Shown piece after piece: positions 479 to 44,891 of a stretch of 64,000 bases of DNA (position 1 is its first letter; every line of letters begins with the position of its first letter). Source of the stretch: an uncultured Solirubrobacteraceae bacterium (lineage in GTDB: Bacteria > Actinomycetota > Thermoleophilia > Solirubrobacterales > Solirubrobacteraceae); NCBI GenBank assembly GCA_964588985.1, contig CAZPQW010000001.1:128001-192000 (forward strand), in the 5' to 3' direction. The translations under genes and the position numbers were made by a program. The notes under the pieces are model-generated. The model was not told the origin of the DNA, searched no databases, and was given only the letters and a program-made list of their open reading frames with translations.

Positions 479-742
479 TCACGATCCGGCCGCCTGCTCG
501 AGCTTGGTGGCGATCAGCCCGGAGATCCGCTCGATGGAGCCGAAGTTGCTCGGCACGACGTCGGCGTCGCCGATCGCGATGCCGTACTCCGACTCCAGCC
601 ACGCCACCATCCGCAGCAGCAGCATCGAGTCGATCACATGCTGCTCGATCAGGGGCAGCTCGTCGGTGAGCTCCGCGCGAGGCCCGTCCCAGTTGGCCTC
701 TTCGATCAGGAAGTCTCGGATCCGCTCCGCTTGTTGGGTCAT
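479..742 (-). CDS. Stand-alone acyl/peptidyl carrier protein (PltL/RedO-like)
   Basis: 87 aa acidic protein with IDSM phosphopantetheine site and VVPSNFGSI tail; last gene of the A-domain/dehydrogenase operon. Confidence 0.88.
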   Translation of the reverse strand: MTQQAERIRDFLIEEANWDGPRAELTDELPLIEQHVIDSMLLLRMVAWLESEYGIAIGDADVVPSNFGSIERISGLIATKLEQAAGS

Positions 743-766
743 GCCTGGTTGCCCCTTTGGTTGAAG

Positions 767-2323
767 CTACTGCTGCAAGGCCCGCCGGTCGATCTTTCCG
801 GTCGACGATTTCGGCAGCTCCGGTCGGAGCTCGATCTCGTCGGGGATCATATGGCTCGGCAGCCGCTCGCGGCACAGGCGGGCGATCCGTGCCTCGGTGA
901 TCGGTGTGCCGGTCACGACGAACGCCTTCAGGCGATTTGTGATCGTCTCGTCCGGCACGGCTATCACGGCCGCCTCGACCACGCCCTCGATCGCGCTCAG
1001 CGCCGCTTCGATCTCGCCGAGCTCCACGCGGTATCCGCGCGTCTTGATCTGCGAGTCGCGACGGCCGGCGAACAGCAGCTCGCCGTCGGAGCGCCGGCGC
1101 ACGAGATCGCCGGTGCGGTAGTGGCGAATGCCGTCCTCCGAGTGCAGCGCGCGAGCCGTCCGCTCTGCATCGTTCCAGTAGCCGTGCATCACCGTCGGGC
1201 CTCCGATCACGAGCTCGCCCAGCTCACCGTCGGGCGCGGGGGTCCCATCCTCGAGCTCGATCGCCGCGCTCACGCCGGGCAGCGGCACGCCGATCGGCAG
1301 CTCGGCCGTGGGCGGGTGCTCGCGCGGCACCTCGTGCCACGTGCATACGTTGGTCTCGGTCGGGCCGTAGAAGTTGAGATACCTGGGCATCGGCACCAGC
1401 TCCATCAGGCGCGCGAGGTACTTGATCGGGAACACCTCGCCGGCGAAGATCACCACGCGCAGCGCCGGCAGCGGCGTCTCCTCGAGCTCCCCGCGGAGCA
1501 CCAGCGCGGTGAGCGCGGAGGGCACCGAGTACCAGACCGTGATCGTCTGCTCGGCGATGAAGCGCGTGAGCATCACCGGGAAGATCGACAGGTCGCGCGG
1601 GACGAGCACCACCGCCGCGCCGCCGTGGGCGGCCGCGAACAGGTCGAAGGTGGAGAGGTCGAAGTGAAACGGCGCGTGGCTCGAGAGTCGATCCTCCGGC
1701 GTCACACCCACCTCGCGCGCGGCCCAGTCGACGAACGCGAGGCAGTTCGCGTGCGAGAGCATCACGCCCTTCGGCTCGCCGGTCGAGCCTGAGGTGTAGA
1801 GGATGTAGGCGAGCGCGTCGGGGTCGCTCGCGACGGGTGGGGCCTCGGGTGCGAAGGCCTCGACCGCGCTCCAGGACAGCCACTCCACGCCTCCCTTCGC
1901 GTCGCGGCCCTCGGCATCGCCCCCGCCAGCGCCGGCGCCAACGATCGTCTCGAGCGGCACGCCCTGGGCGAGCAGCTCTCTGCACACGCCAGCCCTCGCG
2001 TCCGAGCTCACGACGCAGCGCATACCCGCGTCGCGCGCGATGTAGGCGAGGCGGTGCACGGGCGCCTGGTCGTCGAGCGGCACGTACACCGCGCCCGCCT
2101 TCAGCACGCCGTAGATCGCGATCACCGCCTCGATCGACTTCTCGAGCGCCAGCCCAACGCGATCTCCGGGCGCGACGCCACGGGCGGCCAGCGCAGCGGC
2201 GAGGCTGCTGGACCGCGCGTCGAGCTCGGCGTAGGACAGCTCGCGCTCCCCATCGACCACCGCGATCCGCGCGCCCCCGCTCCGCGCCGCTGCGGAGAGA
2301 AGATCGTGAACCACGGCGCTCAC
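767..2323 (-). CDS. Stand-alone adenylation enzyme, L-proline--carrier ligase type (PltF/RedM-like)
   Basis: YTSGSTGEPKG, FDLS, YGPTETNVC, YRTGD, PKSSTGK; manual code about DLFYIAFVCK; GTG at 2323 overlaps the upstream TGA, so the ORF-track extension to 3343 is shadow. Confidence 0.88.
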   Translation of the reverse strand: MSAVVHDLLSAAARSGGARIAVVDGERELSYAELDARSSSLAAALAARGVAPGDRVGLALEKSIEAVIAIYGVLKAGAVYVPLDDQAPVHRLAYIARDAGMRCVVSSDARAGVCRELLAQGVPLETIVGAGAGGGDAEGRDAKGGVEWLSWSAVEAFAPEAPPVASDPDALAYILYTSGSTGEPKGVMLSHANCLAFVDWAAREVGVTPEDRLSSHAPFHFDLSTFDLFAAAHGGAAVVLVPRDLSIFPVMLTRFIAEQTITVWYSVPSALTALVLRGELEETPLPALRVVIFAGEVFPIKYLARLMELVPMPRYLNFYGPTETNVCTWHEVPREHPPTAELPIGVPLPGVSAAIELEDGTPAPDGELGELVIGGPTVMHGYWNDAERTARALHSEDGIRHYRTGDLVRRRSDGELLFAGRRDSQIKTRGYRVELGEIEAALSAIEGVVEAAVIAVPDETITNRLKAFVVTGTPITEARIARLCRERLPSHMIPDEIELRPELPKSSTGKIDRRALQQ

Positions 2324-3501
2324 AGCCCGAGGTGGCGCGCGATCACGTTGCGCTGCATCTCCGAGGTTCCCGAGTAGATCCGCGAGCCGAGCGCGTCGCG
2401 CACGTCGCGCTCGAGCCCGGTCTCGGTCATGTAACCCGAGCCGCCGTGTACCTGCAGCGCGTCGAGGCTCGACTGTACGAGCGCCTCGCTCAGGTGCAGC
2501 TTCGTCATCGCCGCGTCCAGGTCGGTTGCGGCGCCGGCGTCGAGCAGGGCCGCGATCCGATACAGCATCAGGTGAGAGGTCTGCAGGCGCAGGCGCATGT
2601 CCGCAAGCGGGTGCGAGACCGCCTGGAAGGAGCCGATCGGCGCGCGGAACTGGACGCGCTCGCGCGCATACGCGACGCAACGCTCGAGCTGGCGGCGCAT
2701 CGTGCCGACCGCGGCCGCGAGGATCAGGCTGCGCTCCCAGCGCATGGAGCTGTTGAAGATCGCCATCCCGCCGCCCGGCTCCCCAAGCAGCGCGTCGGCG
2801 CCCACGTGGCAGTCGGCGAGGAACAGCTCGCCAAGATGCGACGTTCGCAGCCCCATCTTCGAGAACGGCGAGCCGATCTCCAGCCCCGGCGCTCCACGCT
2901 CCACCACGAACGCGCACAGGCCCGCGAACCCGAGACGCACGTCGGTGGTCGCGAACACTATGAACAGATCGCTGTCGGGGGCGTTGGTGACGAACGTCTT
3001 CGAGCCGTTGAGCAGCCAGCCGTCGTCTGTGGGCGCAGCGGTCGTGCGCAGAGCAAACGCGTCCGAGCCCGATTCCGGCTCGGTCATGCCGTGCGCGGCG
3101 AGCAGCGAGCCGTCGCACAGCCCAGGCAGCCAGCGGCGCTTCTGCTCCTCGGTGCCGAAGTGCACGATCGGCATCTCGCACGCCCACATGTGCGCGTTCA
3201 ACGAGAAGATCAGCCCGTTGTCTGGGCAGCCGTAGCCGAGACCTTCGAGCGCCGCCGCGATCGTCGTCGCCGACGCGCCGAGGCCGCCGTACGCGGGGGG
3301 GACCGGCAGGCCCTGCAGGCCGAGCTGGGCGCACTTGAGCCACTCCTCCTTGGAGAACGTCCCCTCGTGGTCGCGGCGGTCGAGATCGTGGCCGAGCTGG
3401 CTCTGGGCGAAGGCGACGATCGACCGTTGCAGGGAGCGCTGCTCCTCGTCCAGAGGGTCGGGGTGAAGCGCGATCGCGCTCTGCGCTGTGGGGTTGCTCA
3501 T
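2320..3501 (-). CDS. Acyl-CoA dehydrogenase family, probable prolyl-carrier dehydrogenase (PltE/RedW-like)
   Basis: MTEPESGSDAF, LNGSKTFVTNAP, KMGLRTS, RVQFRAPIGSFQAV, QVHGGSGY, IYSGTSEMQR; ATG 3501 in ATGA overlap. Confidence 0.9.
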   Translation of the reverse strand: MSNPTAQSAIALHPDPLDEEQRSLQRSIVAFAQSQLGHDLDRRDHEGTFSKEEWLKCAQLGLQGLPVPPAYGGLGASATTIAAALEGLGYGCPDNGLIFSLNAHMWACEMPIVHFGTEEQKRRWLPGLCDGSLLAAHGMTEPESGSDAFALRTTAAPTDDGWLLNGSKTFVTNAPDSDLFIVFATTDVRLGFAGLCAFVVERGAPGLEIGSPFSKMGLRTSHLGELFLADCHVGADALLGEPGGGMAIFNSSMRWERSLILAAAVGTMRRQLERCVAYARERVQFRAPIGSFQAVSHPLADMRLRLQTSHLMLYRIAALLDAGAATDLDAAMTKLHLSEALVQSSLDALQVHGGSGYMTETGLERDVRDALGSRIYSGTSEMQRNVIARHLGL

Positions 3502-4400
3502 CGTGGGGCGGGGGCGGCGCTCGCCGGACGGGCCGGCATCAGGTAACGGGCGTAGGTCGTAAACGGACGGTAGCCGAGCCCCAGCCACACCGGAGCGCCG
3601 AGCCCCGAGGTCTGACACAGTGACAGTCGCGCGCCGAGCTCGCGGTAGCTGAGCTCGAGCGCCGCCCACAGGCAGCTCTGCGCGAGTCCGCGGCGCTCAC
3701 CCGGAGGGCCGGAGCGCGGAAGTCGCTGCCCCGGCTTCGGCCGGCGGATCGTCGCGGCCTGGCAGCCGAGGGCAACCTCGTGTGTGACGAGCGTCATCGC
3801 GGCTGACAGCGGCATGTCGTCGTAGTAGGCGACGAACGCCGCCACGTTCGGAACGTCGAGACTGTCCGGATCGAAGAACACCTTCGCCGCGACCTCACGC
3901 GGCATCGACGCCATCCCCCAAGCGTCGGCGACGAGGTCGAGGTAGTCCTCGCGCGTGCGCGCGTCCGCGGCGCGCCTGATCTCGACGCCGTCCGGCGGCG
4001 GCACGTACTCGGGCAGCTGCTCGAGCACCAGCTCCGGGAGGCGCTCCAGCTCGTGCAGCCCCTGTTGTGTCGCGGTGCGCTCCAGGTCGCCGTCGCCGTG
4101 CTCGCGCGCCCACAGCGCGTAGCCGCTCTTGCGCGGCCCGAAGAAGCTGTCGGCCAGGCGCAGGACCTCCTGCGGGCTCAGGGCCTCGCTGAGGCGCAGC
4201 GCGCCGTTGCGGTAGGGGTTCGGCTGCCGGTGGGCGCCGGCGAACAGGAGAAGCCCGTCCTCCTCGGCGAGCGCGCCTCCGTAGCGCGCGAGATACCGAA
4301 GGTACTCGGCCAGCGTCAAGTCGGCCAGGACGAGCAGATCTTTGCGCGCGCTCAGCTCGTCCGTGGCTGGCGTGTGCACTGCAGTTGCCCGCGTGTCCAC
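3498..4400 (-). CDS. GNAT-fold acyltransferase-like protein
   Basis: C-terminal half has GNAT motif A/B pattern (AAT...ERRGLAQSCL...LGARLSLCQTSGLGAPVWLGLGYRPF); translationally coupled to the dehydrogenase. Confidence 0.65.
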   Translation of the reverse strand: MDTRATAVHTPATDELSARKDLLVLADLTLAEYLRYLARYGGALAEEDGLLLFAGAHRQPNPYRNGALRLSEALSPQEVLRLADSFFGPRKSGYALWAREHGDGDLERTATQQGLHELERLPELVLEQLPEYVPPPDGVEIRRAADARTREDYLDLVADAWGMASMPREVAAKVFFDPDSLDVPNVAAFVAYYDDMPLSAAMTLVTHEVALGCQAATIRRPKPGQRLPRSGPPGERRGLAQSCLWAALELSYRELGARLSLCQTSGLGAPVWLGLGYRPFTTYARYLMPARPASAAPAPR

Positions 4401-4431
4401 CGTCGCGTGATCGTAGTGGATACGTGGATGC

Positions 4432-4467
4432 GACGAATGTCCATTGGAGACGATTGTCCATTACGAT
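4432..4467 (+). promoter_or_regulatory. 14-bp direct repeat plus -10 box in the GNAT/wzm divergent region
   Basis: GACGAATGTCCATT (4432-4445) and GACGATTGTCCATT (4449-4462), followed by TACGAT (4462-4467). Confidence 0.5.
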
Positions 4468-4554
4468 ATGTGTGTGCTAGAGGGAACTAGCTCCGACTTG
4501 TCGGTCGAGGGGGGGCCGCCGAGTGACACTTCACGTTCGCGTGAGGGGGCGGCT

Positions 4555-5397
4555 GTGCGGCCGCGCGAGCCCCGTCCCGAGATCTGGTTCCACCGCAAGG
4601 TCAACTTCATCTCCGCGGTAAAGGAGCTGTGGCGCTTTCGCGAGCTGACGGTCACGCTTGCCGAGCGCGATCTGCGCGTCCGCTACAAGCAGGCGGTGCT
4701 CGGTGTGGCATGGGCGGTTGTGGCGCCGGTGGTGATGATGATCGCCTTCAGCGTGCTCATCAATCGCGTCACGAAGATCAACACCGGGGGCGCGCCGTAC
4801 CCGCTGTTCTCATATCTGGGGCTGCTGCCGTGGACGTTCTTCTCCAGCTCCCTGTCCACCGGCGGCCTCAGCCTGGTCTCCAACAACGAACTCCTCAACA
4901 AGCTCTACTGCCCGCGCGAGGTCTTCCCGATCGCCGCCATCGCCGACGCCGCCGTCGACGCGGTGATCGCCACGTGCGTGCTGGCGGTCCTTTTCCCGAT
5001 CGAGGGATTTGCCCCAAGGGCCGAGATCTTCTACGTGCCGCTGCTCCTGGTCGTGATGCTGATGTTCACCCTCGGCGTGACGCTTGCCGTGTCCGCAATC
5101 GTCGTATACGCCCGTGACCTGCGCCTGGTGCTGCCGCTCGCGATCCAGGTGGGGTTGTTCGTCACGCCGGTCGTCTACAGCACGGGATCGATCACCAGCT
5201 CAAAACCGCTCCTGCTCTTGTTCTCGGCGATCAACCCGCTGGTGCCGGTGATCGACGGCATGCGCGCCACGATCCTCACCGGCAATGCGCCGGAATGGGC
5301 TTCGCTGGGCGTCGGCGCGGGCAGCGCGCTGATCTTCCTGCTCGGCGGGTTCCTGCTGTTCAAGCGCCTCGAGACGGGGATGGCCGACATTGCGTGA
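4555..5397 (+). CDS. wzm: ABC-2 polysaccharide export permease (Wzm/RfbA type)
   Basis: ELWRFREL...RDLRVRYKQAVLGVAW, LLPWTFFS, KLYCPRE, FVTPVVY, NPLVPVIDGMR; GTG 4555 follows GAGGGGG; earlier starts (4444, 4468) are possible. Confidence 0.92.
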   Translation: MRPREPRPEIWFHRKVNFISAVKELWRFRELTVTLAERDLRVRYKQAVLGVAWAVVAPVVMMIAFSVLINRVTKINTGGAPYPLFSYLGLLPWTFFSSSLSTGGLSLVSNNELLNKLYCPREVFPIAAIADAAVDAVIATCVLAVLFPIEGFAPRAEIFYVPLLLVVMLMFTLGVTLAVSAIVVYARDLRLVLPLAIQVGLFVTPVVYSTGSITSSKPLLLLFSAINPLVPVIDGMRATILTGNAPEWASLGVGAGSALIFLLGGFLLFKRLETGMADIA

Positions 5398-6583
5398 GGG
5401 AACGATCGTCGCGGAGGAGATCTGGAAGCGCTTTCGCATGGACGAGCGCCCGACCTACCTGCAGGATCGGCTCTCCGGCGTCGGCGATCGCCTGCGCGGG
5501 CGGCAGGCCGACAGCTGGCGCTGGGCGCTGAACGACGTCAACCTGCGTGCCGAGCCCGGCGAATCGTGGGCGCTGGTCGGCGCCAACGGAGCCGGCAAGT
5601 CGACGCTCTTGAAGATCGTCTCGCGTGTCATGTACCAGACGGCCGGCCGTCTCGACATGGCCGGACGGGTCGGCGCGCTGATCGAAGTCAGAGCCGGGCT
5701 CACTCCGCTGCTGACCGGTCGCGAGAACATCTACCTGACCGGCTCGATCATGGGCCTGCGCCGGCGCGAGGTCGCCCAGCGCTTCGACGAGATCGTCGCG
5801 TTCGCCGAACTGGAGCGCGCGGTCGACCGTCAGGTCAAGTACTACTCGTCCGGCATGCAGATGCGGCTCGGCTTCTCGGTGGCCGCCCACCTGCAGCCCG
5901 ACATCCTGCTCGTCGACGAGGTCCTGGCGGTCGGGGACGCGAGCTTCCAGCAGCGCTGCCTGGACCAGATTCGCGCGGTGCTGAACGAAGGCACCACGCT
6001 GCTGTTCGTCTCACACGACCTGGCCGCGGTGGAGGCCACCTGCGCCAACGGGATCTGGCTGCACAACGGCGAGGTGCGCACCAGGGGGCCGATCCGCGAG
6101 GTTCTGTCCGCCTATCGCGGCGCCGTCGAGGGCGACGCCAAGGCCCGCGCCGACATCGAGGGGCTGATCAAAGTCACGAACGTCGAGGCGGTCTCCCCCG
6201 ACGGAGGGCTGGCCAAGACCGGCGGGCAGCTCGACGTCAAGCTCACCATTCACAGCGACGCGAGCCATCGAGCCTGGATCTACCTCGGGGTGACCGAGGG
6301 CGCCGCCACGCCGATCTTCCTCCTGAACCCGGGACGCGAGGTGCTGCTCGAGCCGGGCGAGACCCAGGTGATGTGCACGATCCCGTCGCTGCCGCTGCCG
6401 AGCGGACGCTTCTACGTGTGGGGTGGGATCTACAAAAACTGGACCCAGGGCGACGAGCTGATCGGCTGGCAGCCGCTGACGGAGTTCGACGTCTATGGAC
6501 CCGAGATGGATGCGGCCCCGCGCGCGGTTGTGCGCCTGTCGCCGATCCACGTCGACTCGAGCTGGGAGATCGAGGGGGCCTGA
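5390..6583 (+). CDS. wzt: Polysaccharide ABC ATPase (Wzt) with C-terminal Wzt_C-like domain
   Basis: GANGAGKST, LTGRENI, YSSGMQMRLGFS, LLVDEVLAVGDASFQ, VSHD; about 150 aa beta-rich C-terminal extension. Confidence 0.93.
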   Translation: MREGTIVAEEIWKRFRMDERPTYLQDRLSGVGDRLRGRQADSWRWALNDVNLRAEPGESWALVGANGAGKSTLLKIVSRVMYQTAGRLDMAGRVGALIEVRAGLTPLLTGRENIYLTGSIMGLRRREVAQRFDEIVAFAELERAVDRQVKYYSSGMQMRLGFSVAAHLQPDILLVDEVLAVGDASFQQRCLDQIRAVLNEGTTLLFVSHDLAAVEATCANGIWLHNGEVRTRGPIREVLSAYRGAVEGDAKARADIEGLIKVTNVEAVSPDGGLAKTGGQLDVKLTIHSDASHRAWIYLGVTEGAATPIFLLNPGREVLLEPGETQVMCTIPSLPLPSGRFYVWGGIYKNWTQGDELIGWQPLTEFDVYGPEMDAAPRAVVRLSPIHVDSSWEIEGA

Positions 6584-6611
6584 ACCGGCCTCTGGGCCGC
6601 CGAGGCCGGTT
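6583..6611. terminator. Hairpin between convergent wzt and kamA
   Basis: AACCGGCCTC-N9-GAGGCCGGTT, perfect 10-bp stem. Confidence 0.6.
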
Positions 6612-8019
6612 AGGTGACGATCGCCGGAGCTTGCGCCGGGTGCGCGCCGTCGGGCGTCTCACCCGAGCTCGCGATCTCGGCTTCCCACCACGCCTGCCCG
6701 GCCGCGGGGAGCTCGTGGATCGGGTCGTAGTACTCGAATCGCCGCATCAGCGCTTCCGGATCCTCCGCGTCGACCGATGTGAGGTAGTTCTTGGTCCAGT
6801 AGGAGATCCCGCGCTCGCGGTCGTAGTCCACGATCTGGTCGACCCAGCGCTTGCCCACGTAGGGCACGTCGCACACGAGCCGCGGCGTGGCGAAGCCCGG
6901 CAGGTAGCCCATGATCGCGCGCTGGAGTTCCTGCGCCTCGGCGACCGACAGGCGCCAGTGCTCGGATGCGGGGATCATGTCGCAGAGGTAGAAGTAGTAC
7001 GGGAGCACCCCGGCGCCGTCGAGCACCGCGAAGCACAGGTCCAGCAGCGCGTCCGGTGTCGAGTTCACTCCCCGCAGCAGCACGCCCTGGTTGCGGATGT
7101 GACGGACTCCGGCTTCGGTCATCGCCTTGGCGGCATCGGTGAACGTCTCCGTGACCTGCGACGCGACGTTGATGTGAGTGTGAATCGCGAGGCTGATGCC
7201 GCGGTCGAACGCCTTCGTGGCCACGCGCTCCACGCCGCTGCGCATCTCATCGGTGAGCCAGTGTTGCGGGAGTGACATCAGGCCCTTGCTCGCGAGCCTG
7301 ATGTCGCGGATGTTCTCGATCTCCATCAGGCCGTCGAGGAACGCCTCCAGACGTGGCCACGGCAGGTTGGTGAGGTCGCCGCCCGATACGACCACGTCGC
7401 GGACGGTGGGCGTCTTGCGCAGGTACTCGAGCATCTGCTCGCGCCGGTCGGGGGCCTTGGTCGTGAAGTGCTGTTTGGTGACCTGCGGCGTGGAGGGCCC
7501 GACGAGGTCCATGCGCGTGCAGTGCCCGCAGTACAGCGGGCAGGTGGTGACCATCTCCGCGAGCACCTTCGTGGGATAGCGGTGTATCAACCCCTCGACC
7601 GCCCACATCTCGGCCTCGTGCAGCGAATCGCGCGACGCGCGGGGGTGGGTCGGCCAGCGCGGATGCCGATCGGACGCGGCGGGCAGCACGTAGCGGCGAA
7701 CCGGGTCCGCGTAGAGCCCTTCGGTGGAGGGGACCTCTTCGGGCACCATCGTGTTCAGCACCTGGGGCGTGATCAGGATCGACATCGTCGCGTGGGTGGC
7801 CTGGTCGCGCTTGACGTCCTCGTAGAAGGAGTCCTCTACGAGGTCGCCGAGCACGGTGCGCAGGGCGCGAAGCGTTTTGATCGAGTTCGTCCGCTGCCAG
7901 CGCACGTCGCGCCACTGCGCCCTGGTGACGTCGCGCCAGCCTGGGAAGCGCCGCCACTCCGGCTCGACCGGCTCGAAGCGACGGTAGTGATACGGCTGGC
8001 GAGCGGGTGTGTCGCTCAT
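6610..8019 (-). CDS. kamA: KamA-family radical SAM/PLP 2,3-aminomutase (lysine 2,3-aminomutase-like)
   Basis: HRYPTKVL, CPLYCGHCTR, VVVSGGD, HTHIN, NQGVLLRGVN, PYYFYLCD, VGKR PLP-lysine region; ATG 8019 overlaps the NRPS stop. Confidence 0.9.
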   Translation of the reverse strand: MSDTPARQPYHYRRFEPVEPEWRRFPGWRDVTRAQWRDVRWQRTNSIKTLRALRTVLGDLVEDSFYEDVKRDQATHATMSILITPQVLNTMVPEEVPSTEGLYADPVRRYVLPAASDRHPRWPTHPRASRDSLHEAEMWAVEGLIHRYPTKVLAEMVTTCPLYCGHCTRMDLVGPSTPQVTKQHFTTKAPDRREQMLEYLRKTPTVRDVVVSGGDLTNLPWPRLEAFLDGLMEIENIRDIRLASKGLMSLPQHWLTDEMRSGVERVATKAFDRGISLAIHTHINVASQVTETFTDAAKAMTEAGVRHIRNQGVLLRGVNSTPDALLDLCFAVLDGAGVLPYYFYLCDMIPASEHWRLSVAEAQELQRAIMGYLPGFATPRLVCDVPYVGKRWVDQIVDYDRERGISYWTKNYLTSVDAEDPEALMRRFEYYDPIHELPAAGQAWWEAEIASSGETPDGAHPAQAPAIVT

Positions 8020-12254: not shown

Positions 12255-12321
12255 CGCGGTTGCCTCTCTTCGAGCCACGGTGAGAGATCCTTGGCCATCC
12301 GTGCCTCCCCCGCAACCTCGC

Positions 12322-21336: not shown

Positions 21337-21416
21337 GTGGAAGCTCCAAGACCCGCCCGTGGGTGCACTACCGTGGCCGACGAGCAGCAATTCGGCGATA
21401 CTACCGAGGCTGTCGC

Positions 21417-22514: not shown

Positions 22515-22553
22515 ATGACTTGCGCTGGGCGTAAAATCTCGAACGGATTCGTA

Positions 22554-23541: not shown

Positions 23542-34778
<11,237 letters not shown>

Positions 34779-34782
<4 letters not shown>

Positions 34783-37700: not shown

Positions 37701-37823
37701 CAGGCGATCATGCGGATTCGTCGGGTCTACGGCGAGATCCCGCTGGGTGCGCTCTTCAACTCGCCGACGGTGGGCGCGCTGGCCGACGTGATCCGAGCAC
37801 GGATCTCTGCCGACGCGCCGTAG
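34779..37823 (+). CDS. NRPS module I(interface, C-like)-A(Asp)-T
   Basis: MSDFRLSPQQ start in ATGA overlap after GGAGGAG; ALAASADARS replaces HHxxxDG; code DLTKVGHVGK; GGHSLL; no TE. Confidence 0.9.
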
Positions 37824-37843
37824 ACCTTCCGCGGCGTTCTCCG

Positions 37844-39790
37844 CTATCGCAGGGTGAACGGCTTCGTGACCACGACGGGCGATCCGCCCGTCGGAGTGAA
37901 GGTACCCCGGCCCGTCAACTTGATCCGGCGACCGTGCTTGAGCAGGCTCTTGCCACGCGCCGTGAGCTTGAGCGCCAGCTTCCACACGCCTTTCGTCGTG
38001 ATGGTGGCCTGGCCGCTCGCCACGAGGATCGGCTTGGCGCTCGCGAGGTGGGCCCCCTTCGGAAGCTCGTACCAGGAGATCGCGACTGGGCCGGCGGCGG
38101 GCGCGTCGAACGTCACCTGATAGCCGCGGTGCTTGCGGACCGAGGCGATACGACCCGCCTTCCCGATGGGCAGCAGCGCGCCCAGCAGCGCCGCCTGGAT
38201 CTGGGCCGGGTTGGGCGCAGCTTCGCCGCCGCCGGAGCCACCTGAGCCGCCGCCCGATCCGCCGCTGCCGCCTGTCCCGCCACCGCCTGTCGATGGCGTC
38301 GTGACCGTCCAGTCGTAAGTGGCGGTGTTGGTGTTGCCGGCGGAGTCGGTGGCCTGGACCTGGAAGCTGTGGGCGCCCGCGCCGAGCGCTGTGTAGGACT
38401 GGCTGGTGGGAGTGGCGCACTGCGTCCAGATGCCTGAGTCCAACTGGCACTGCACGGTTGCGACTGCGTCGTTGACGGAGAAGGCGAAGCTCGCTGATGT
38501 GAGAGCGGTCGGGTTGGGGGGCTCCGATTCGGCGGCGATCGTCGCTTCGACCGGTTCGGGATCGAGTGTGATCACGGACACCGTGCCGGTCAGTTCTGGG
38601 CCTTCGGGCTGCAGCGCGAAGGGGGGGAAGGGGGTCTGGTGCTGCGTCGAGAGGTTGGTCGAGGTGGCGATCACGTGGCTGCCCGTCGGATCGAGGTCGA
38701 GCCCGGTGGTGGAATGAAGGTGCGCCGGGTCGCTGTAGCTCGCGAGCAGTCGCGGGCTGAGCGGGTTGGAGATGTCGATGACGGCGATGCCGGCGGCTTC
38801 GGAGGCGGAGACGAACGCCATGTTTCCTCGCACCCGGATCCGGTAACCGCCTGCGAGCGCGGAGTTCGCGAGGAACCCGACGACCTTCGGTTCTTTTGGG
38901 TTGCTGATGTCGACAGCAGCCAGCGGCCCGTTCGATTTCTGGTTGATGACGTACGCGTAGCTGCCGCTGATCGCCACGTCGACGGGGAACGTGAAGTGCG
39001 TGGTGTCGTGCAGCGAGGTGACGAGCTTCGGTTCGACGGGGTTGGCGATGTCGACCACTGTGAGGCGGTCCTGGTAGGCGGCGGTGAGGTACGCGTAGGT
39101 GCCCGAGATCGCGACAGCGGTGACGTGGCTGAAGGCTTCCGGTTCGGCTTCGCTACGCAGCGTGGCGACTATCTTCGGCGCTTCCGGGCCGGCGATTTCG
39201 ATTACGTCCAGGGCGTTGCCCACGGAGGGGTCCGGGCATGGCTGTTCTTTTCCGAGGGTGAGGCATCCCTGCGAGGCGACGTACGCGTAGTTGCCGGACA
39301 CGGCGATCCCGTAGGCGCCGAACAGGCTGTTGGGGTCGCGCACCGAGCCGACGATCGTGGGTTTGGCCGGGTTGGTGTGGATGTCGAGAATCGTCAGGCT
39401 GTTGCCCGAGCCGTCGTCGTTGCTTCCAGAGACTTTGGCTTCGTTGCGGTTCTTCGAGACGACGAACGCATAGCCGCCGGCGATGTTGACCGTGTCCCCG
39501 TTCTCCAGTTCGTTGCTTGACGCGCTCGACCCCACGAGGAGCGGCGAGGAGGGAAGCGAGATGTCGATCGCGCTGAGCCGGCCAGCGAAGTAGTCGGTCA
39601 CGTACGCGTAGATACCTTCGACCGCTACGGAGTCGACGCCCGGAAGCGTCGCGGAGTCGCTCACCGAGCCGGCGAGCACCGGGTTGACAGCCGCCTGCGC
39701 GGACACGGGCGCGAGCAACACCGCGGCCGCGACCAGAGTCGCCCAGCGCGCCGTGATCCAGACCGTCCCTCGAGTCCCGCGGAGGGTCAC
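37844..39790 (-). CDS. Secreted LVIVD-repeat propeller protein with Ig-like domain, Gly linker and basic C-terminal domain
   Basis: Signal peptide ending VSAQA; repeats V.ISG.YAYV....L..VDISNP..P; GGGGTGGSGGSGGG linker; GTG 39790 is 2 nt after the upstream stop. Confidence 0.8.
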   Translation of the reverse strand: MTLRGTRGTVWITARWATLVAAAVLLAPVSAQAAVNPVLAGSVSDSATLPGVDSVAVEGIYAYVTDYFAGRLSAIDISLPSSPLLVGSSASSNELENGDTVNIAGGYAFVVSKNRNEAKVSGSNDDGSGNSLTILDIHTNPAKPTIVGSVRDPNSLFGAYGIAVSGNYAYVASQGCLTLGKEQPCPDPSVGNALDVIEIAGPEAPKIVATLRSEAEPEAFSHVTAVAISGTYAYLTAAYQDRLTVVDIANPVEPKLVTSLHDTTHFTFPVDVAISGSYAYVINQKSNGPLAAVDISNPKEPKVVGFLANSALAGGYRIRVRGNMAFVSASEAAGIAVIDISNPLSPRLLASYSDPAHLHSTTGLDLDPTGSHVIATSTNLSTQHQTPFPPFALQPEGPELTGTVSVITLDPEPVEATIAAESEPPNPTALTSASFAFSVNDAVATVQCQLDSGIWTQCATPTSQSYTALGAGAHSFQVQATDSAGNTNTATYDWTVTTPSTGGGGTGGSGGSGGGSGGSGGGEAAPNPAQIQAALLGALLPIGKAGRIASVRKHRGYQVTFDAPAAGPVAISWYELPKGAHLASAKPILVASGQATITTKGVWKLALKLTARGKSLLKHGRRIKLTGRGTFTPTGGSPVVVTKPFTLR

Positions 39791-39792
39791 AG

Positions 39793-42700
39793 CTACCGCT
39801 CCAGGTACTCCTGCAGCCGCTCGGCGACGAAGCCGACGGCCGGCTCCTGCATCACCTGACGGTTGTTGTCGTGCTCGCCGGGCACTGCGTAGCTGATGAC
39901 CGTGCCGAGCGACTCCCAGCCGAGCGTCGGGTCTTCGTAGAGCTCCTGCCCGTAGAAGACGAGCAGCTCCCCGGGGTAGGGGGTGGGGACGTAGCTTTTC
40001 TCCGCGTCGCTGTGCAGGTTGAAGAAGAACTCCTCGCGGTCGCGCTCGGGCACCGGGCGGCCGAGTGAGAGCAGCAGCCGCGTACGCGGTGTGCGCGTGT
40101 ACCGGTAGAAGCCGCTCACCAGTTTGTGAGGTTCGACGATCGCCCGCGGGAGGCGCGCGATCAGCTTGAACGGCGCCAACAGCCTCCGCTTGCGTCGGCG
40201 GGCGCGACGGACGTGCGGCGGGGGCATCGGCTCGCGCGAGCGCTTCGCGCGCCAGCTGGGCTGGTTGGCGTAGTAGCCCCACTGTTTGACCCACAGGGGG
40301 CTCGGACCGTTGAACATCGCCACGAGCTGCACGTCCTCGCCGGCAGCCAGGAGCTGCTGTGCGATCTCGAATGCGACGATCGTGCCGAAGCAGTAGCCGG
40401 CGATCAGCCACGGGCCGCCCGGATGCACCTGGCGCATCTCGGTGATGTAGTGCGACGCCATCTCCTCCACTGTCCGCAGCGGCGAGCTGCCGCCGTACAG
40501 CCCGCTCGACTGCAGGCCGTAGAACGGCTGCTCCGTTCCGAGCCGGCGAGCGAGCCGATGCAGGTGCAGGATGGTGCCCGCTCCGCCGTGGATGCAGAAG
40601 ATCGGCGGGCGTGAGCCGAGCGGCTGGATCGGCACGAGCGAGGTCCAGCGCGAGGAGTCCGCGCCGGCCTCGATCAGCTTGGCGAGCGCCTCGATCGTGG
40701 GAGCCCTGAATATCGCCCCCAGGGGCAGGCTGTCGCCGAGGTCGCGCTCGATCGCGGCGAACAGCGTCGCCGCCACGATCGACGAGACGCCGAGGTCGAA
40801 GAAGTTGTCGGTGACGCCGATCGGGTGGATGTCGAGCTCGCGTTCCCAGGTCGAGACCAGTCGGCGCTCCAGGTCGGTGCGAGGGGCGATCAGCTCGTGT
40901 CCGCTGGAGCGTTCGCGGACCGGCTCCGGCAGCGCCTTGCGGTCGACCTTGCCGTTGGGCGTCAGGGGGAACGCCTCGAGCGTGGTCACGGTCGAGGGGA
41001 CCATGTACGCGGGCAGCGTCTCGCCCAGGTACCCGCGCAGCTCGTGGGCCGGCAGCGCCTCTCCCCGCGCGGTTACGTATGCGGCGAGCTCCGCCTCGGC
41101 GTCGCTGCCTCGGGCTACGACGACGGCTTCGACGATGCCAGGGTGGCGCGCGAGCACGGTCTCGATCTCGCCGAGCTCGATGCGAAAGCCGCGCACCTTG
41201 ACCTGGTGGTCGATCCTGCCGAGGAACTCGACGTCCCCGTCCTCTCGGTAGCGGGCGAGGTCCCCCGTCCTGTAGATACGCGCTCCGGGCGTGTCGTCGA
41301 ACGGGTGCGCGACGAATCGTTCGGCGGTCATCTCGGCCTGCCCGCGGTAGCCGCGGGCGAGTCCGTCGCCGCCGATCCACAGCTCGCCGGCGACCCCGAC
41401 CGGCACGGGTTGCATCGCCGCGTCGAGGATGTACAGGGTGGTGTTCGCGATCGGGCGCCCGATCGTCAACGGCTGGCCCTGTGTCGTCACGCGGTCGCAG
41501 GTCGACCAGATGGTCGTCTCGGTCGGCCCGTACATGTTCCACAGCTCGAGGCCCGCGTCGACGAGGCGGTCGGCGAGCGCGACCGGCAGCGCCTCGCCGC
41601 CGCACAGGGCCTTCAATCCCGGCCTGCCGACGAGGCCGCTGTCGACGAGCATCCGCCACGTCGTCGGCGTCGCCTGCATGACGGTCGCCTGTGAGCGGTC
41701 GAGCAGCTCCGCGAGCGCCCGCGGGTCCTCCGCGGTCTCGCTCGGGGCGATCACCACCCGCGCCCCCGTCGTCAGCGGCAGGTACAGCTCGAGGCCCGCG
41801 ATGTCGAAGGAGAGCGTCGTCACGGCCACGAGCACGTCCTCGGCGGTCAGCCCCGGCCGCTCCCTCATCGTGGTGAGGAAGTTCACCAGCGCGCGGTGGG
41901 GGATCTGCACGCCCTTCGGGTTGCCCGTCGAGCCGGACGTGTAGATGACGTAGGCCAGCTGCTCTGGGTCGCCGGCGACATCAGGGGGGGTGCTCGGCCG
42001 TTGGGCGATCGCGCTCCAGTCGGTGTCCAGACAGACGACGTGAGCGTTGCCCACGGGCAGGGAGTCGCGCAGCTCCTCCTGCGTGACGATCACCGGCGCT
42101 TCGGAGTTGGTGAGCATGTACGTCTGGCGCTCGGCCGGGTAGGCGGGGTCGATCGGGACGTAGGCGCCGCCCGCCTTGAGGATCCCGAGAAGCCCGACGA
42201 CCATCGCGGTCGAGCGCCTCGTGCAGATGCCGACGAGCACGTCCGGGCCGACGCCGAGGTCGAGGAGGTGGTGGGCGAGCTGGTTGGCGCTCGCATCGAG
42301 CTCCGCGTACGTGAGCCGCTCCTCGCGGCACTCGACGGCCACCGCGTCCGGTGTCGCGGCCGCCTGTTGCGCGATCAGCTCGTGCAGGCACGCAACGGGG
42401 TAGGGGGCGGCGGTGTCGTTGAGCTCGATCAGCAGCCTGGCGCGCTCCTGCTCATCGAGCAGTGGCAGTGCGCCGACGGCGATGCCAGGATCGGCAAGCG
42501 CCGCCGCGAGCAGGGTGCGCAGATGCCCGACGAACCTCCCGTTCACGCCCGCGGCCTCGCCGCGGAGCTCGAGCTCATCGCCGCCGGGGCTGGCATACAG
42601 GCAGGGCTCCGGCAGCGGGCTGTCAGCGGGGCCTCTGCCGACGGCGACCACGGCGTCCGTGGGGCCGTGGCCGTTCTCGCCCTCGACCCCGCCTTCGAGC

Positions 42701-42915
42701 GCCTCGCGCACCTGCTCCAGGAGCTCGGAGAATGCGAGCTCTCCGTCGAGGCGGACCGGGAGCGCGCGCGGCTGGGCCGCCCCGCCGGGGGCGTACCCGA
42801 CGAGGACCTCGGAGCGGTCGCTGTAGCGGTGGAGCAGCGCCGCCACGCCCGCGATCAGTTGGCAGCCGAACTCGTCCTCCCGCTCGGCGGGTTGCGTGAT
42901 CTGTTCCGTGGAAAT
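39793..42915 (-). CDS. Single-module NRPS: C remnant-A(Gly)-T-TE(Cys)
   Basis: LLHRYS...LPVRLDG C-remnant; code DILQLGMIWK; FFDLGVSS; GYCFG; start uncertain (ATT 42915 or ATG 43032). Confidence 0.88.
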   Translation of the reverse strand: MSTEQITQPAEREDEFGCQLIAGVAALLHRYSDRSEVLVGYAPGGAAQPRALPVRLDGELAFSELLEQVREALEGGVEGENGHGPTDAVVAVGRGPADSPLPEPCLYASPGGDELELRGEAAGVNGRFVGHLRTLLAAALADPGIAVGALPLLDEQERARLLIELNDTAAPYPVACLHELIAQQAAATPDAVAVECREERLTYAELDASANQLAHHLLDLGVGPDVLVGICTRRSTAMVVGLLGILKAGGAYVPIDPAYPAERQTYMLTNSEAPVIVTQEELRDSLPVGNAHVVCLDTDWSAIAQRPSTPPDVAGDPEQLAYVIYTSGSTGNPKGVQIPHRALVNFLTTMRERPGLTAEDVLVAVTTLSFDIAGLELYLPLTTGARVVIAPSETAEDPRALAELLDRSQATVMQATPTTWRMLVDSGLVGRPGLKALCGGEALPVALADRLVDAGLELWNMYGPTETTIWSTCDRVTTQGQPLTIGRPIANTTLYILDAAMQPVPVGVAGELWIGGDGLARGYRGQAEMTAERFVAHPFDDTPGARIYRTGDLARYREDGDVEFLGRIDHQVKVRGFRIELGEIETVLARHPGIVEAVVVARGSDAEAELAAYVTARGEALPAHELRGYLGETLPAYMVPSTVTTLEAFPLTPNGKVDRKALPEPVRERSSGHELIAPRTDLERRLVSTWERELDIHPIGVTDNFFDLGVSSIVAATLFAAIERDLGDSLPLGAIFRAPTIEALAKLIEAGADSSRWTSLVPIQPLGSRPPIFCIHGGAGTILHLHRLARRLGTEQPFYGLQSSGLYGGSSPLRTVEEMASHYITEMRQVHPGGPWLIAGYCFGTIVAFEIAQQLLAAGEDVQLVAMFNGPSPLWVKQWGYYANQPSWRAKRSREPMPPPHVRRARRRKRRLLAPFKLIARLPRAIVEPHKLVSGFYRYTRTPRTRLLLSLGRPVPERDREEFFFNLHSDAEKSYVPTPYPGELLVFYGQELYEDPTLGWESLGTVISYAVPGEHDNNRQVMQEPAVGFVAERLQEYLER

Positions 42916-43062
42916 TGCCCTTCGCCTCCGTGCCCGAAGATGATCCGATGCGGTGCGATGCCCCGGTACCCCATCCGTCCGCGCATCCTGCGCGATCCGT
43001 CCCAATCCTGGCCAAATGGTACCGGATGTCATTACTATTCGTGCGTGGTGTTGGCCGTCGAC

Positions 43063-43839
43063 ATGGGGGAAACCGTCGTGGGAGCACCGGACGAGCCTTG
43101 CGTGCCCACGACCCTGCCCGCGAACGAGGTCCACGTGTGGCGGGACTCGCTGTCGCGGCCGCCCGCGGAGGTCGCCCGGCTGCGGACCCTGTTGGCGCCG
43201 GATGAGCGCCGCCGCGCCGACCGTTACAGGTTCGAGCGCCACCGCTCGCGCTACGTCGTCGGCCGCGCGACGCTGCGTTTGCTGCTCGCGCGCTACCTCG
43301 ATGTCGGGCCCGGCGAGATGGAGATCGGCTATGGCGAGTTCGACAAGCCCTACCTGGCGGGCGGACCCAGCTTCAACCTCTCCCACTCGGGGACCGTCGT
43401 CCTCTACGCCTTCGCGGCCGCCGGCGAGCTCGGGATCGACGTCGAGCTCGACGACGCCGGCTTCTCGAGCGAACGCATCGCCGAGCGATTCTTCTCCCCG
43501 TCGGAGGTGAGCGTGCTGCGAGCCCTGCCGGCAGACGCTCAGCCGCGGGCCTTCCTCGCGTGCTGGACGCGCAAGGAGGCATTCATCAAGGCGCGCGGAG
43601 ACGGGTTGAGCTTGGCACTTGACAGTTTCGATGTCACACTTTCGCCTGACGCCCCCGCCGCGCTGGTGCGCACCGCGTGGTGCAGCGAGGAGCCGGGGCA
43701 CTGGAGCATGGAGGACTTGAGTGACAGTCGGGCCGGATACGTAGCGGCAGTGGCGATGCGCGGCAACGGATGGCACGTGGTCGAACGACAGATAGAAGAC
43801 ACGATCGAGGGCGGCATGCCCGGACAGGAGCAAGGATGA
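43063..43839 (+). CDS. Sfp-type 4'-phosphopantetheinyl transferase
   Basis: DERRRADRYRF, KP, FNLSHSG, LGIDVE, WTRKEAFIKARGDGL. Confidence 0.93.
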   Translation: MGETVVGAPDEPCVPTTLPANEVHVWRDSLSRPPAEVARLRTLLAPDERRRADRYRFERHRSRYVVGRATLRLLLARYLDVGPGEMEIGYGEFDKPYLAGGPSFNLSHSGTVVLYAFAAAGELGIDVELDDAGFSSERIAERFFSPSEVSVLRALPADAQPRAFLACWTRKEAFIKARGDGLSLALDSFDVTLSPDAPAALVRTAWCSEEPGHWSMEDLSDSRAGYVAAVAMRGNGWHVVERQIEDTIEGGMPGQEQG

Positions 43840-44891
43840 GCGCAGAACAGGAGCCGTCGGGTGCAATGGGGGGCCTGAGGGGCATGCGACGCAAGGCGGT
43901 GGAGACGACGGAGCTGGTGCAGACCGGCTTTCTGCCGGGCAACGAGGGGCGCCTGCCGTTGGTGATCACACCGGCGGTCGACAATGTCGATCTCGCTGCT
44001 TGGTGTGCGAGTCACCTGGAGGACGTCGAAGGTCATCTGGACCGTCACGGGGCGATTCTGTTCCGCGGCTTCCCGCTCGCGGGCGCCGAGGACTTCGAGG
44101 CCGTCGCGTCGACGATCGCCGGCGATCTGTTCGCCGAGTACGGCGACCTGCCGCCCGAGGAAGCAGGCCAGAAGATCTACCACTCCACGCCCTACCCGCC
44201 GGACAAGATGATCCTGTTTCACAACGAGAGCTCGCACTTCTCCAGCTGGCCCCTGCGGCAGTTCTTCTTCTGCGTGGTCCCGTCTCGGGAGCAGGGTGAG
44301 ACGCCGCTGCTGGACTGCCGGGAGGTCTACGAGAAGCTCGACAGGGAGATCGTCGAGGCGTTCGAGAGCAAGGGCCTCGTGTACGTGCGTAACTTCTCCG
44401 AGGGCGTCGACGTGCCGTGGCAGGACTTCTTCCACACCGACGACAAGGCAGCCGTCGAAGACACCTGCGCCAAAGCCGGGATGACGTGCGAGTGGACAGA
44501 GCTGGGCCTGCGCGTCAAGCAGCTCGCGAAGGGCGTGCGGACGCACCCTCGCACGGGCGAGAAGCTGTTCTTCAACCAGGTGCAGCTGCACCACATCGCG
44601 TGTCTGGACGAGGAGACGCGGACGGCGCTGCGCCAGCTGTTCGACGACGAGGACCTTCCCCGCAACGTGTACTACGGCGACGGGACGCCGATTCCGGACG
44701 AGGTGATGGACCGGATCGGCGAGGTCTACGAGGAGCTGTGCGTGGAGGCTCCCTGGGAGGCGGGCGATCTGATCGCGCTGGACAACATGATCGTCGCGCA
44801 CGCTCGTCGCCCGTTCGTGGGCGAGCGCAAGATCATCGTCGCGATGGGCAAGATGCAGCACGCCGAGGATGTCGCACCTGCGGCGGCGTAG
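43836..44891 (+). CDS. TauD/SyrP-like Fe(II)/2-oxoglutarate dioxygenase, probable aspartyl-carrier beta-hydroxylase
   Basis: HGAILFRGF, STPYP, FHNESSH (HxE), GETPLLDCR, FFNQVQL, DNMIVAHAR; ATG in ATGA overlap. Confidence 0.9.
   Translation: MSAEQEPSGAMGGLRGMRRKAVETTELVQTGFLPGNEGRLPLVITPAVDNVDLAAWCASHLEDVEGHLDRHGAILFRGFPLAGAEDFEAVASTIAGDLFAEYGDLPPEEAGQKIYHSTPYPPDKMILFHNESSHFSSWPLRQFFFCVVPSREQGETPLLDCREVYEKLDREIVEAFESKGLVYVRNFSEGVDVPWQDFFHTDDKAAVEDTCAKAGMTCEWTELGLRVKQLAKGVRTHPRTGEKLFFNQVQLHHIACLDEETRTALRQLFDDEDLPRNVYYGDGTPIPDEVMDRIGEVYEELCVEAPWEAGDLIALDNMIVAHARRPFVGERKIIVAMGKMQHAEDVAPAAA

Follow-up and report, generated by a model that had tools for sequence, protein, structure and literature searches.

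Introduction

Several described biosynthetic systems offer partial precedents for a nonribosomal peptide synthetase (NRPS) gene cluster that occupies positions 479–44891 of a 64,000-nucleotide stretch of DNA (the window) from an uncultured Solirubrobacteraceae bacterium (assembly GCA_964588985.1, contig CAZPQW010000001.1, positions 128,001–192,000). The pyrrolyl cassettes PltL/F/E, RedO/RedM/RedW and PigG/PigI/PigA share with this locus a free-standing peptidyl carrier protein (PCP), a putative Pro-type adenylase and a prolyl-PCP dehydrogenase-like enzyme, which are encoded by adjacent, coupled genes. Siderophore NRPS modules of the TBH_Asp/SyrP-like type resemble it in having a condensation (C)-like domain devoid of the catalytic histidines in front of an Asp-coded adenylation (A) domain, an arrangement that occurs twice and is accompanied by one free-standing TauD-family gene; such interface (I) domain modules for β-hydroxyaspartate (β-OH-Asp) in siderophore NRPSs were reportedly the subject of work by Reitz et al. 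in 2019. Sulfazecin biosynthesis via SulM and SulN has in common with it a chain-terminating thioesterase (TE) with a Cys nucleophile and sulfotransferase genes of the 3'-phosphoadenosine 5'-phosphosulfate (PAPS) type within an NRPS cluster, and nothing further. The aminomutase KamA (PDB 2a5h), a type of enzyme connected with β-lysine-containing antibiotics, shares the CxxxCxxC motif, Arg134, Asp293 and Asp330 with one of the encoded proteins. The transfer of aminoacyl units from one thiolation (T) domain to another has precedents in SyrC, CmaE, CysB and LgnA (PMC8748450, PMC7966384). These systems, i.e., the free-standing transferases SyrC, CmaE and CysB, the type II TE LgnA and the A-T-TE0 protein PacP, are comparable to the locus by their logic rather than by sequence, in that a separate A-T unit and a main-line T domain without an A domain are present and a hydrolase-fold domain is at hand to move the unit.

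As judged from its gene content, its motifs and its recurrence in related genomes, the region 479–44891 probably represents a single intact and functional-looking NRPS biosynthetic gene cluster of an uncharacterized family, whose product and mode of initiation can be predicted from the encoded proteins. The cluster family appears to combine an unusual initiation set with an unusual mix of tailoring enzymes; its anatomy is solid, while its chemistry is predicted. A preceding sequence-only reading of the window had pointed to twin sulfotransferases, two Cys-thioesterases, an aminomutase, interface/β-hydroxylase modules, a pyrrole cassette and mostly translationally coupled genes, and all of these components were recovered at the same places in the present analysis, the aminomutase with family scores below the curated cut-offs. 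The tandem-GNAT gene, the pair of ABC-2 transporter genes, the phosphopantetheinyl transferase gene, the T domain without an A domain at the start of the largest synthetase and two LVIVD-repeat proteins had been left unmentioned. No characterized cluster with this combination was found in the full-text literature, which covered few subscription journals, in agreement with the same reading, and neither was any natural product assigned to Thermoleophilia or Solirubrobacterales.

Gene Organization of the Cluster

Because the G+C content varies between 65 and 73% along the window, the raw list of 133 open reading frames (ORFs) of at least 150 amino acids consists mostly of noise. Genes were called from third-position GC and frame plots, and the families were then assigned with Pfam and NCBIfam. 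Twenty genes (g02–g21) fill the region, and the gaps between them are too small to accommodate a further gene. At the five junctions g05/g04, g04/g03, g09/g08, g16/g17 and g20/g21, the stop codon of one gene overlaps the start codon of the next (ATGA or GTGA), the genes are 0–4 bases apart at the g14/g15 and g15/g16 junctions, and the start of g07 overlaps the end of g06. A decaying cluster was considered and rejected, since every gene of the window is an open frame without internal stops. On its left side, the cluster is bordered by a gene for a sigma factor of the extracytoplasmic function (ECF) type, followed by the housekeeping genes dnaX, ybaB, recR and an aspartate kinase gene, and on its right side by a gene for a large LVIVD/Ig protein (g22), beyond which a polysaccharide locus begins.

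Domain Organization and Specificity Codes of the Synthetases

The layouts of the NRPS proteins were established by domain searches with the window's own domains. The largest protein, g16 (23542–34782, plus strand; 3746 aa), shows the order T0-C-A-T-C-A-T-C-A-T-C, in which the initial T0 is not accompanied by an A domain and retains a GGDS motif. It is followed by the I-A-T module g17 (34779–37823, plus strand), while the minus strand encodes a free-standing C domain with the motif HHIAADA (g12, 18948–20414; PF00668, 320 bits), a second I-A-T module (g11, 15663–18869), a C-A-T module whose start codon is uncertain (g10, 12424–15600) and the terminal C-A-T-TE module (g09, 8016–12278). The HHxxxD motif is kept in seven of seven full C domains. 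The I domains of g11 and g17 give partial PF00668 matches, are devoid of the histidine pair and each precede an Asp-coded A domain.

A separate gene on the minus strand, g19 (39793–43032, with the start codon between 42846 and 43032), codes for a remnant of a C domain of about 200 aa, followed by A, T and TE domains. Residues 1 to about 215 correspond to a C or I domain of which only the C-terminal half is left; many metagenomic homologues of g19 are just 850–920 aa long, and the remnant therefore seems dispensable. Its presence hints at a module that was excised from a longer synthetase. The database gene call starts at a GTG at 42846 and yields 1017 aa. If the ATG at 43032 is taken as start, the start codons of g19 and g20 diverge only about 30 bp apart, and the promoter of either gene would then fall within the coding or leader region of the other.

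The specificity codes were taken from an alignment of nine A domains via motif anchors, for which the exact Thr code of the third A domain of g16 (DFWNIGMVHK) served as internal check. The first A domain of g16 (DLTKIGHVGK) and those of g17 and g11 (both DLTKVGHVGK) carry Asp codes, while the second A domain of g16 and that of g19 share the Gly code DILQLGMIWK. The code of g10 (DLPQVGMVWK) is a Gly-like variant, which is invariant across the cluster family, and the domain itself is most similar to the two A domains with a Gly code (543–545 bits, compared to about 350 bits for the others). The A domain of g09 (DVGEAGSMDK) appears Orn-like with a wider pocket, and that of g03 (DLFYIAFVCK) presumably corresponds to the Pro-carrier type. 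Read collinearly, the line would assemble the order [T0 unit]-Asp-Gly-Thr-Asp-Asp-(Gly-like)-(Orn-like), which agrees with the succession X-Asp-Gly-Thr-Asp-Asp-Gly*-basic proposed before.

Thioesterase Domains

Both TE domains carry Cys at the position of the nucleophile, within the motifs GFCFA (g09) and GYCFG (g19), and both residues align by HMMER to the Cys of the TE of AB3403 (PDB 4zxh), which together with a Ser-type TE (7crn/7dxo) represents the best solved relatives. An Asp found 27 residues after the Cys in g09 is aligned to the position-I Asp of AB3403, and the usual Asp position of the g19 TE (+27) is occupied by Asn. These features are consistent within the family: the terminal TEs of 17 distinct related loci show Cys together with Asp at +27, and GYCFG together with Asn at +27 occurs in the g19-type TEs of nine distinct loci. 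Among the best 120 of 1068 metagenomic A-T-TE homologues of g19, 113 proteins of at least 850 aa were aligned, and the Cys and the Asn are each present in 113 of 113.

Tailoring Enzymes

The KamA-family radical-SAM/PLP 2,3-aminomutase g08 (6610–8019, minus strand) gives no match in Pfam, and its NCBIfam scores of 167 bits for TIGR00238 (cut-off 199) and 172 bits for TIGR03820 (cut-off 525) stay below the thresholds. It aligns with lysine 2,3-aminomutase (PDB 2a5h) at an E-value of 4e-43, and C125/C129/C132, R134, D293 and D330 are identical; R134, D293 and D330 are reported to bind the substrate in the structure paper on lysine 2,3-aminomutase. Compared to KamA, g08 scores below the lysine equivalog and subfamily cut-offs and shows an insertion of about 30 residues as well as a longer C-terminus. 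Its gene is translationally coupled to that of the last NRPS module. The enzyme probably acts on a basic amino acid, and β-Lys would be the expected product. The last A domain contains Ala299/Gly301 in three of three readable KamA-positive loci, two further ones being unreadable for this code due to frameshifts, and (Ile/Val)299/Ser301 in ten of ten KamA-negative loci. Because these loci are kin to each other, the correspondence between code and KamA is suggestive and does not amount to a statistical test.

The two PAPS-type sulfotransferases, g13 (20431–21390, minus strand; PF00685 and PF13469) and g15 (22515–23537, plus strand; PF00685), match PF00685 with 80 and 85 bits, respectively, and are 54% identical to each other. 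Both PAPS-binding loops are kept in either protein, as represented by KCGTTS and RDPADRSYS in g13. The best PDB matches of g15 are heparan sulfate 3-O- and N-sulfotransferases (E-value 5e-26), and the source genome encodes an adenosine 5'-phosphosulfate (APS) kinase. A further sulfotransferase homologue in a related genome (G039, 44% identity) was dropped as unrelated, as no NRPS neighbors turned up there among the cluster proteins searched. Elsewhere in the source genome, a tandem array of at least five sulfotransferase paralogues, 29–37% identical to g15, is located on contig C7 (81751–86287). The APS kinase is encoded on the same contig at 62793–63245, within an open frame of 692 aa and about 19 kb away from the array. 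Similar arrays are found in many members of the genus, and the one on C7 looks like a sulfated-glycan locus.

The Fe(II)/2-oxoglutarate-dependent hydroxylase g21 (43836–44891, plus strand; TauD/SyrP-like, PF02668 with 156 bits) shows an HxE...H motif, consisting of HNE and a distal His, and is a probable Asp β-hydroxylase. Its translation probably starts at the ATG at 43836, which overlaps the stop codon of g20, and its homologues align from residue 23 onward. The preceding gene g20 (43063–43839, plus strand) codes for an Sfp/HetI-type phosphopantetheinyl transferase (PF01648, PF22624; NF042922 with 168 bits, below the cut-off).

Pyrrole Cassette, Tandem GNAT, and Possible Chain Initiation

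The minus strand at the left end of the cluster encodes the free-standing PltL-like PCP g02 (479–742; PF00550, 21.7 bits), the free-standing PltF-like adenylation enzyme g03 (767–2323; PF00501 and PF13193, TIGR01733 with 387 bits, above the cut-off) and the dehydrogenase g04 (2320–3501), in which three acyl-CoA dehydrogenase Pfam domains were recognized. The Ser of the IDSM motif of g02 is invariant in 15 aligned homologues. The best single-stretch PDB match of g03 is 6o6e (PltF, L-proline-[L-prolyl-carrier protein] ligase; 335 bits). The best NCBIfam families for g04 are RedW (NF045652, 436 bits; cut-off 650) and PigA (NF053553, 425 bits; cut-off 500), with the next family at 285 bits, which makes it a candidate L-prolyl-PCP dehydrogenase like PltE, RedW and PigA. 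In contrast to the PltL/F/E-type systems, the partner of the cassette is an NRPS starting with a T domain without an A domain, instead of a PKS ketosynthase (KS) or a sugar acyltransferase. Further differences consist in the absence of a halogenase and in a tandem-GNAT gene that is attached to the cassette in 20 of 20 loci.

This gene, g05 (3498–4400, minus strand; 300 aa), is assigned by its fold to the tandem-GNAT acyltransferases, as it matches neither a Pfam nor an NCBIfam family. A comparison with the ESM Atlas leads to GNAT clusters at 0.96, and an exhaustive HMMER search yielded 635 cluster representatives at E ≤ 0.001, from which 80 near-full-length ones among 150 listed were aligned; 61 of the 81 members of this alignment match GNAT Pfam families, g05 itself being without a match. 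AlphaFold produced a model with a predicted local distance difference test score (pLDDT) of 92 and a predicted template modeling score (pTM) of 0.88 when supplied with the remote-homologue alignment, and a pLDDT of 33 with three close homologues only. The top Foldseek match of the model is 4ius (E-value 1.8e-14), a GNAT of unknown function, followed by tandem GNATs and relatives such as MshD, the clavulanate tandem GNAT, FemX, Sbb17/Sba18 and glycine N-acyltransferase. The Gly of the pyrophosphate-binding loop is nearly invariant, in line with the GNAT fold.

The pyrrole would act as starter of the chain. The seven C domains correspond to the seven bonds from T0 to the last module, and therefore the pyrrole and the Gly of g19 cannot both enter via C domains; for one of the two, a different catalyst is needed. 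The tandem GNAT g05, which always occurs beside the dehydrogenase g04, and the atypical TE of g19 come into question. In a tentative model, which we consider possible and prefer among those for initiation, g19 would load Gly onto its own T domain, g05 would cap it with the pyrrolyl group taken from the S-PCP, and the TE of g19 would shuttle the resulting unit to T0. The gene for an A(Gly)-T-TE(GYCFG) protein and a T-first NRPS gene are both present in six of six loci for which both regions were read. In contrast to SyrC, CmaE and CysB, the putative transferase forms part of the same protein as the A-T unit, as its TE, in which the Cys is invariant and the position of the triad acid is held by an equally invariant Asn.

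Conservation and Variants in Related Genomes

Relatives were sought with the g05 alignment in a scan of a single genome for each species, which led to the loci of 20 species, all of them represented by metagenome-assembled genomes (MAGs) titled Solirubrobacteraceae, Solirubrobacterales, Thermoleophilia or Actinomycetota. Part of the gene set recurs in every one of these loci: g04 and g05 are direct neighbors in 20 of 20, a PCP gene is present in 17, the ABC pair lies beside g05 in 15, and KamA occurs in four of them in addition to the window. The sub-cassettes stand together in varying order in all seven relatives whose wider loci were read (G018, G019, G041, G042, G044, G045 and L031), and their co-occurrence in related genomes, which the sequence-only reading had named as a test of its proposal, thus holds. 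Six of them (all except L031) contain g05, one or more sulfotransferases of the cluster type, the gene for the A(Gly)-T-TE(GYCFG) protein, a TauD gene, a pair of I-A(Asp)-T modules, the module with the code DLPQVGMVWK and the T-first NRPS. The phosphopantetheinyl transferase gene is found in the same six except for the G019 stretch, where it was not detected, and the pyrrole cassette is likewise shared, being represented in G018 by g04 only because the contig ends there. In the more distant loci L031 and L036, all genes point in one direction and follow the order g19, g02, g03, C domain, I-A-T module, g05, g04. An ECF sigma homologue stands beside the PCP gene in L017, L019, L022, L030, L033, L034, G041, G042 and G044.

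The relatives differ in the ends of the assembly line. The window, G018 and G045 share a long N-terminus (T-C-A Asp-T-C-A Gly-T-C-A Thr-T-C), together with two to three sulfotransferases, and a short one is found (T-C-A Thr-T-C) in G041, G042 and G044, together with one sulfotransferase at E ≤ 1e-40. The C-termini fall into three types, namely KamA with DVGEAGS(M/I)D-TE, an Orn-like DVGE(I/V)S(A/S)IDK-TE, and an Orn-like module with a Pro module behind it that bears the TE. In several of the MAGs (L025/G019, L030, L033, L034 and L022/G044), many genes of the cluster are broken up into between two and six pieces on the same strand, which looks like the result of long-read indel errors and not of decay.

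The host belongs to a Solirubrobacterales MAG lineage, and all known members of the family come from uncultured Solirubrobacterales (Actinomycetota) of soil and rhizosphere. The sequencing runs containing this DNA carry rhizosphere metagenome labels and all date from 2019; they may stem from one campaign, which may include the source, and give a hint to the habitat only. Homologues of g05 at E ≤ 1e-40 are present in three of 401 genomes drawn evenly from the order, one of which is the source genome G000; the remaining two are among 122 further genomes of its family, and the five remaining families yielded none. Close homologues of the cluster sulfotransferase occur in two of 24 sampled members of the genus. 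The cluster is thus an accessory trait of patchy distribution. A metagenome collection at 90% identity contains at least 302 homologues of g05 at E ≤ 0.001, and only generic names appear among the best 120 of these and among the best 120 of the 1068 homologues of g19.

Proposed Pathway

In the pathway proposed from these data, g03 would load Pro onto the carrier g02, and g04 would oxidize the prolyl-g02 to pyrrolyl-2-carboxyl-S-PCP. Initiation may then follow the tentative model set out above, via g19, g05 and T0, and the main line g16 → g17 → g12/g11 → g10 → g09 would build [T0 unit]-Asp-Gly-Thr-Asp-Asp-X-Y, with X being Gly or another small residue and Y a basic residue, most likely a β-amino acid provided by g08. 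Both Asp residues held on the I-A-T modules would be hydroxylated to β-OH-Asp by g21, and the two sulfotransferases would transfer sulfate from PAPS to hydroxyls of Thr or β-OH-Asp, or possibly to an amine. The Cys TE of g09 would release the chain, maybe by cyclization onto the conserved Thr; a lactonization at this residue is plausible because Thr is the sole conserved side-chain nucleophile upstream of the acidic block in all variants. Export of the product would be mediated by the ABC-2-type permease g06 (4444–5397, plus strand; PF01061) and the ABC transporter ATPase g07 (5390–6583, plus strand; PF00005). The expected product is a small peptide of strongly anionic character with three Asp-type residues, sulfate and a pyrrole-2-carbonyl group.

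Several observations weigh against parts of this proposal. As g04, g08 and g20 all score below the curated equivalog cut-offs of NCBIfam, the substrates assigned to them are tentative. The A domain of g09 retains D235, which is unusual for a β-amino acid substrate. The codes themselves depend on GrsA numbering anchors and canonical meanings for Asp, Gly, Thr, Orn and Pro that we take as commonly given, and we know of no substrate assigned to DLPQVGMVWK. The number of sulfotransferases varies between one, two and three without a matching change in the hydroxylated residues, so that the predicted targets are tentative. With respect to initiation, the carrier-bound donor for g05 and a transfer rather than hydrolysis by the g19 TE are hypothetical steps, and the canonical GxH histidine occurs in just 101 of the 113 aligned g19-type homologues. 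Other wirings fit the same genes, for example a pyrrolyl transfer to T0 with the Gly attached to a side chain, and g05 would also fit a role as resistance acetyltransferase. Finally, no RNA run is listed among the sequencing runs for this DNA.

A more far-reaching joint reading would see in the cluster an undescribed mode of initiation, with a GNAT that caps carrier-bound Gly from a carrier-bound donor instead of an acyl-CoA and a Cys/His/Asn TE as shuttle, together with a multiply O-sulfated, β-OH-Asp-rich cyclic depsipeptide, which would be exported as a non-siderophore polyanion, serve as a Ca- or metal-dependent antibiotic or as a rhizosphere mineral-binding agent, and constitute the first natural-product family of the Thermoleophilia. 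We regard it as rather unlikely that all of these elements apply at once.

Alternative Readings

The alternative that survives best is a β-hydroxyaspartate siderophore or metallophore, in which the two β-OH-Asp residues and a third ligand would bind Fe(III) and the ECF sigma factor would induce the cluster upon metal starvation. It draws on the two I-A(Asp)-T modules with a free-standing TauD-family hydroxylase and on the sigma factor gene conserved beside the cluster, and a study by Reitz and Medema (PMC12971057) treats two I-A(Asp)-T modules with a stand-alone hydroxylase as a siderophore-specific chelator pathway. That study requires two out of three families of transporters (PF00593, PF01032 and PF01497) for a metallophore and states that β-OH-Asp peptides exist which are not metallophores, which speaks against equating the modules with a siderophore. 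A search for FecCD permeases (PF01032) that matched 14 of 14 control genomes gave no hit in the source genome, whose assembly of 3.41 Mb is 96% complete. Such a negative result is unusual for a free-living soil actinobacterium. The single PF01497 binding protein of the genome is encoded on another contig (C38), and none of the three families was present among the ORFs scanned in the 64-kb window and in part of the 20 kb upstream of it, a scan that did not include every ORF. The locus further differs from the β-OH-Asp siderophore systems by its actinobacterial context, by the lack of a hydroxamate, catechol or other chelating-group pathway and by the presence of sulfotransferases, and a sulfation of the β-hydroxyls would destroy the chelating group. 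Because of the negative search for a FecCD permease, the location of the lone PF01497 protein and the result of the ORF scan, a classical siderophore is considered improbable, though it is the alternative to be taken most seriously. An exported anionic peptide that binds metals or Ca or acts as an antibiotic is ranked above a classical recycled siderophore.

It is far less probable that two or more unrelated clusters lie side by side here, with the pyrrole cassette, the GNAT and the exporter serving a different small molecule. The genes are indeed arranged in divergent operons, and neither a C nor a KS partner accompanies the cassette, whose link to the assembly line is not evident from the domain order. 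Against such a division, seven relatives keep the NRPS genes in one place with the cassette, g05, g19, TauD and the sulfotransferase(s) despite changes in their order, L031 and L036 mix both halves within one direction (g19-g02-g03-C-(I-A-T)-g05-g04), and housekeeping genes (dnaX, recR, aspartate kinase) begin on the left and polysaccharide genes on the right of the set.

An N-sulfonated monobactam or another strained-ring product following the SulM/SulN logic, in which the last residue, still bound to its carrier, would be the substrate of a sulfotransferase and the Cys TE would close a β-lactam, might be invoked from the Cys nucleophile of the terminal TE, the sulfotransferase genes inside the cluster and the side-chain amine predicted on the last residue, but is the least credible alternative, as both TEs lack the Gln-Cys-Asn motif, the Asp at +27 of g09 aligns with the common position I rather than position II, the last code is Orn-like without a gene for the synthesis of 2,3-diaminopropionate (Dap) seen in the cluster, and variants of the family end in Pro with the same Cys TE. 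PDB 6vap, listed merely as "Thioesterase" and in our view that of SulM, gives an E-value of just 1e-3 with the g19 TE and is not listed for the g09 TE, and the closest solved Cys TE of both is that of the uncharacterized AB3403, not that of SulM. According to the report on SulM-type TEs (PMC11298585), these enzymes are recognized by the Gln-Cys-Asn motif, in place of which Phe-Cys-Phe is found in g09 and Tyr-Cys-Phe in g19, and by a catalytic Asp at position II after strand β7. The terminal code, judged from its own residues, appears Orn-like instead of Dap, and no SbnA/SbnB-like or other PLP gene for Dap synthesis is present among the Pfam matches of the cluster. The SulM/SulN precedent named by the sequence-only reading therefore stands with respect to the combination of a Cys TE with sulfotransferases and fails with respect to the motifs of the TE.

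Accessory and Neighboring Genes

The ECF-type sigma factor is represented in the window by its C-terminal part (3–422, plus strand; Pfam Sigma70_r4_2, Sigma70_r2 and Sigma70_ECF), as the gene runs off the window start. No match to an MbtH-like motif was obtained in any of the six frames with a crude regular expression, which is weak evidence of absence. Between the sulfotransferase genes lies g14 (21363–22514, plus strand, starting at 21363 or 21540), a β-propeller of the YVTN/lactonase-like type with weak matches to PF10282 and TIGR02276; a homologue was seen only in G045, and the gene is not conserved in most relatives. A second β-propeller, g18 (37844–39721, minus strand), consists of LVIVD repeats (PF08309, 116 bits) with a Big_13 domain.

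The conserved right-hand neighbor g22 (44961–48311, minus strand; PF08309, PF23197) is a large, secreted LVIVD/Ig-domain protein and a candidate member of the cluster. It contains Ig-like AIR9/SCAB domains and an N-terminus resembling a signal peptide, and its homologues, which are 63–73% identical, adjoin the cluster in G019, G041, G042 and G044; for the LVIVD-repeat homologues next to the cluster in these genomes taken together, the range is 61–73%. LVIVD proteins also flank g04 or the PCP gene in L028, L031 and L036. A functional link of g18 and g22 to the cluster may exist, e.g., in binding, immunity or surface display.

The polysaccharide/sugar-nucleotide locus downstream of the cluster extends from 48499 to 63719. 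It begins with a Pro-rich extensin-like protein (48499–49929) and a protein without a Pfam match (49994–51004), and includes genes for NTP_transf_5, a GT4 glycosyltransferase, a Wzy_C O-antigen ligase-like protein, an HpcH/HpaI aldolase, a GFO/IDH/MocA oxidoreductase, a SIS-domain protein, a D-2-hydroxyacid dehydrogenase and a CMP-sugar cytidylyltransferase. This set suggests a pathway for an acidic sugar, which may be similar to 3-deoxy-D-manno-oct-2-ulosonate (KDO) or a nonulosonate.

Significance

Solirubrobacterales and other Thermoleophilia are abundant, rarely cultured actinobacteria of soil and rhizosphere, and the cluster described here joins features that are each rare in NRPS chemistry, namely sulfation, Cys thioesterases, a pyrrole unit and β-hydroxy-Asp without siderophore transporters. 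The natural variants with a long or short N-terminus and a β-Lys-like, Orn or Orn-Pro C-terminus ease comparisons of structure and function within the family. If the initiation model is true, g05 and g19 would provide a carrier-dependent GNAT and a fused acyl shuttle for the engineering of NRPSs. Should the product turn out to be an ordinary metallophore, the value of the finding would be lesser, yet still useful for the iron ecology of soils. The cluster represents a good, if unproven, lead for new chemistry, and the product, if it is made, would be a new anionic peptide scaffold.

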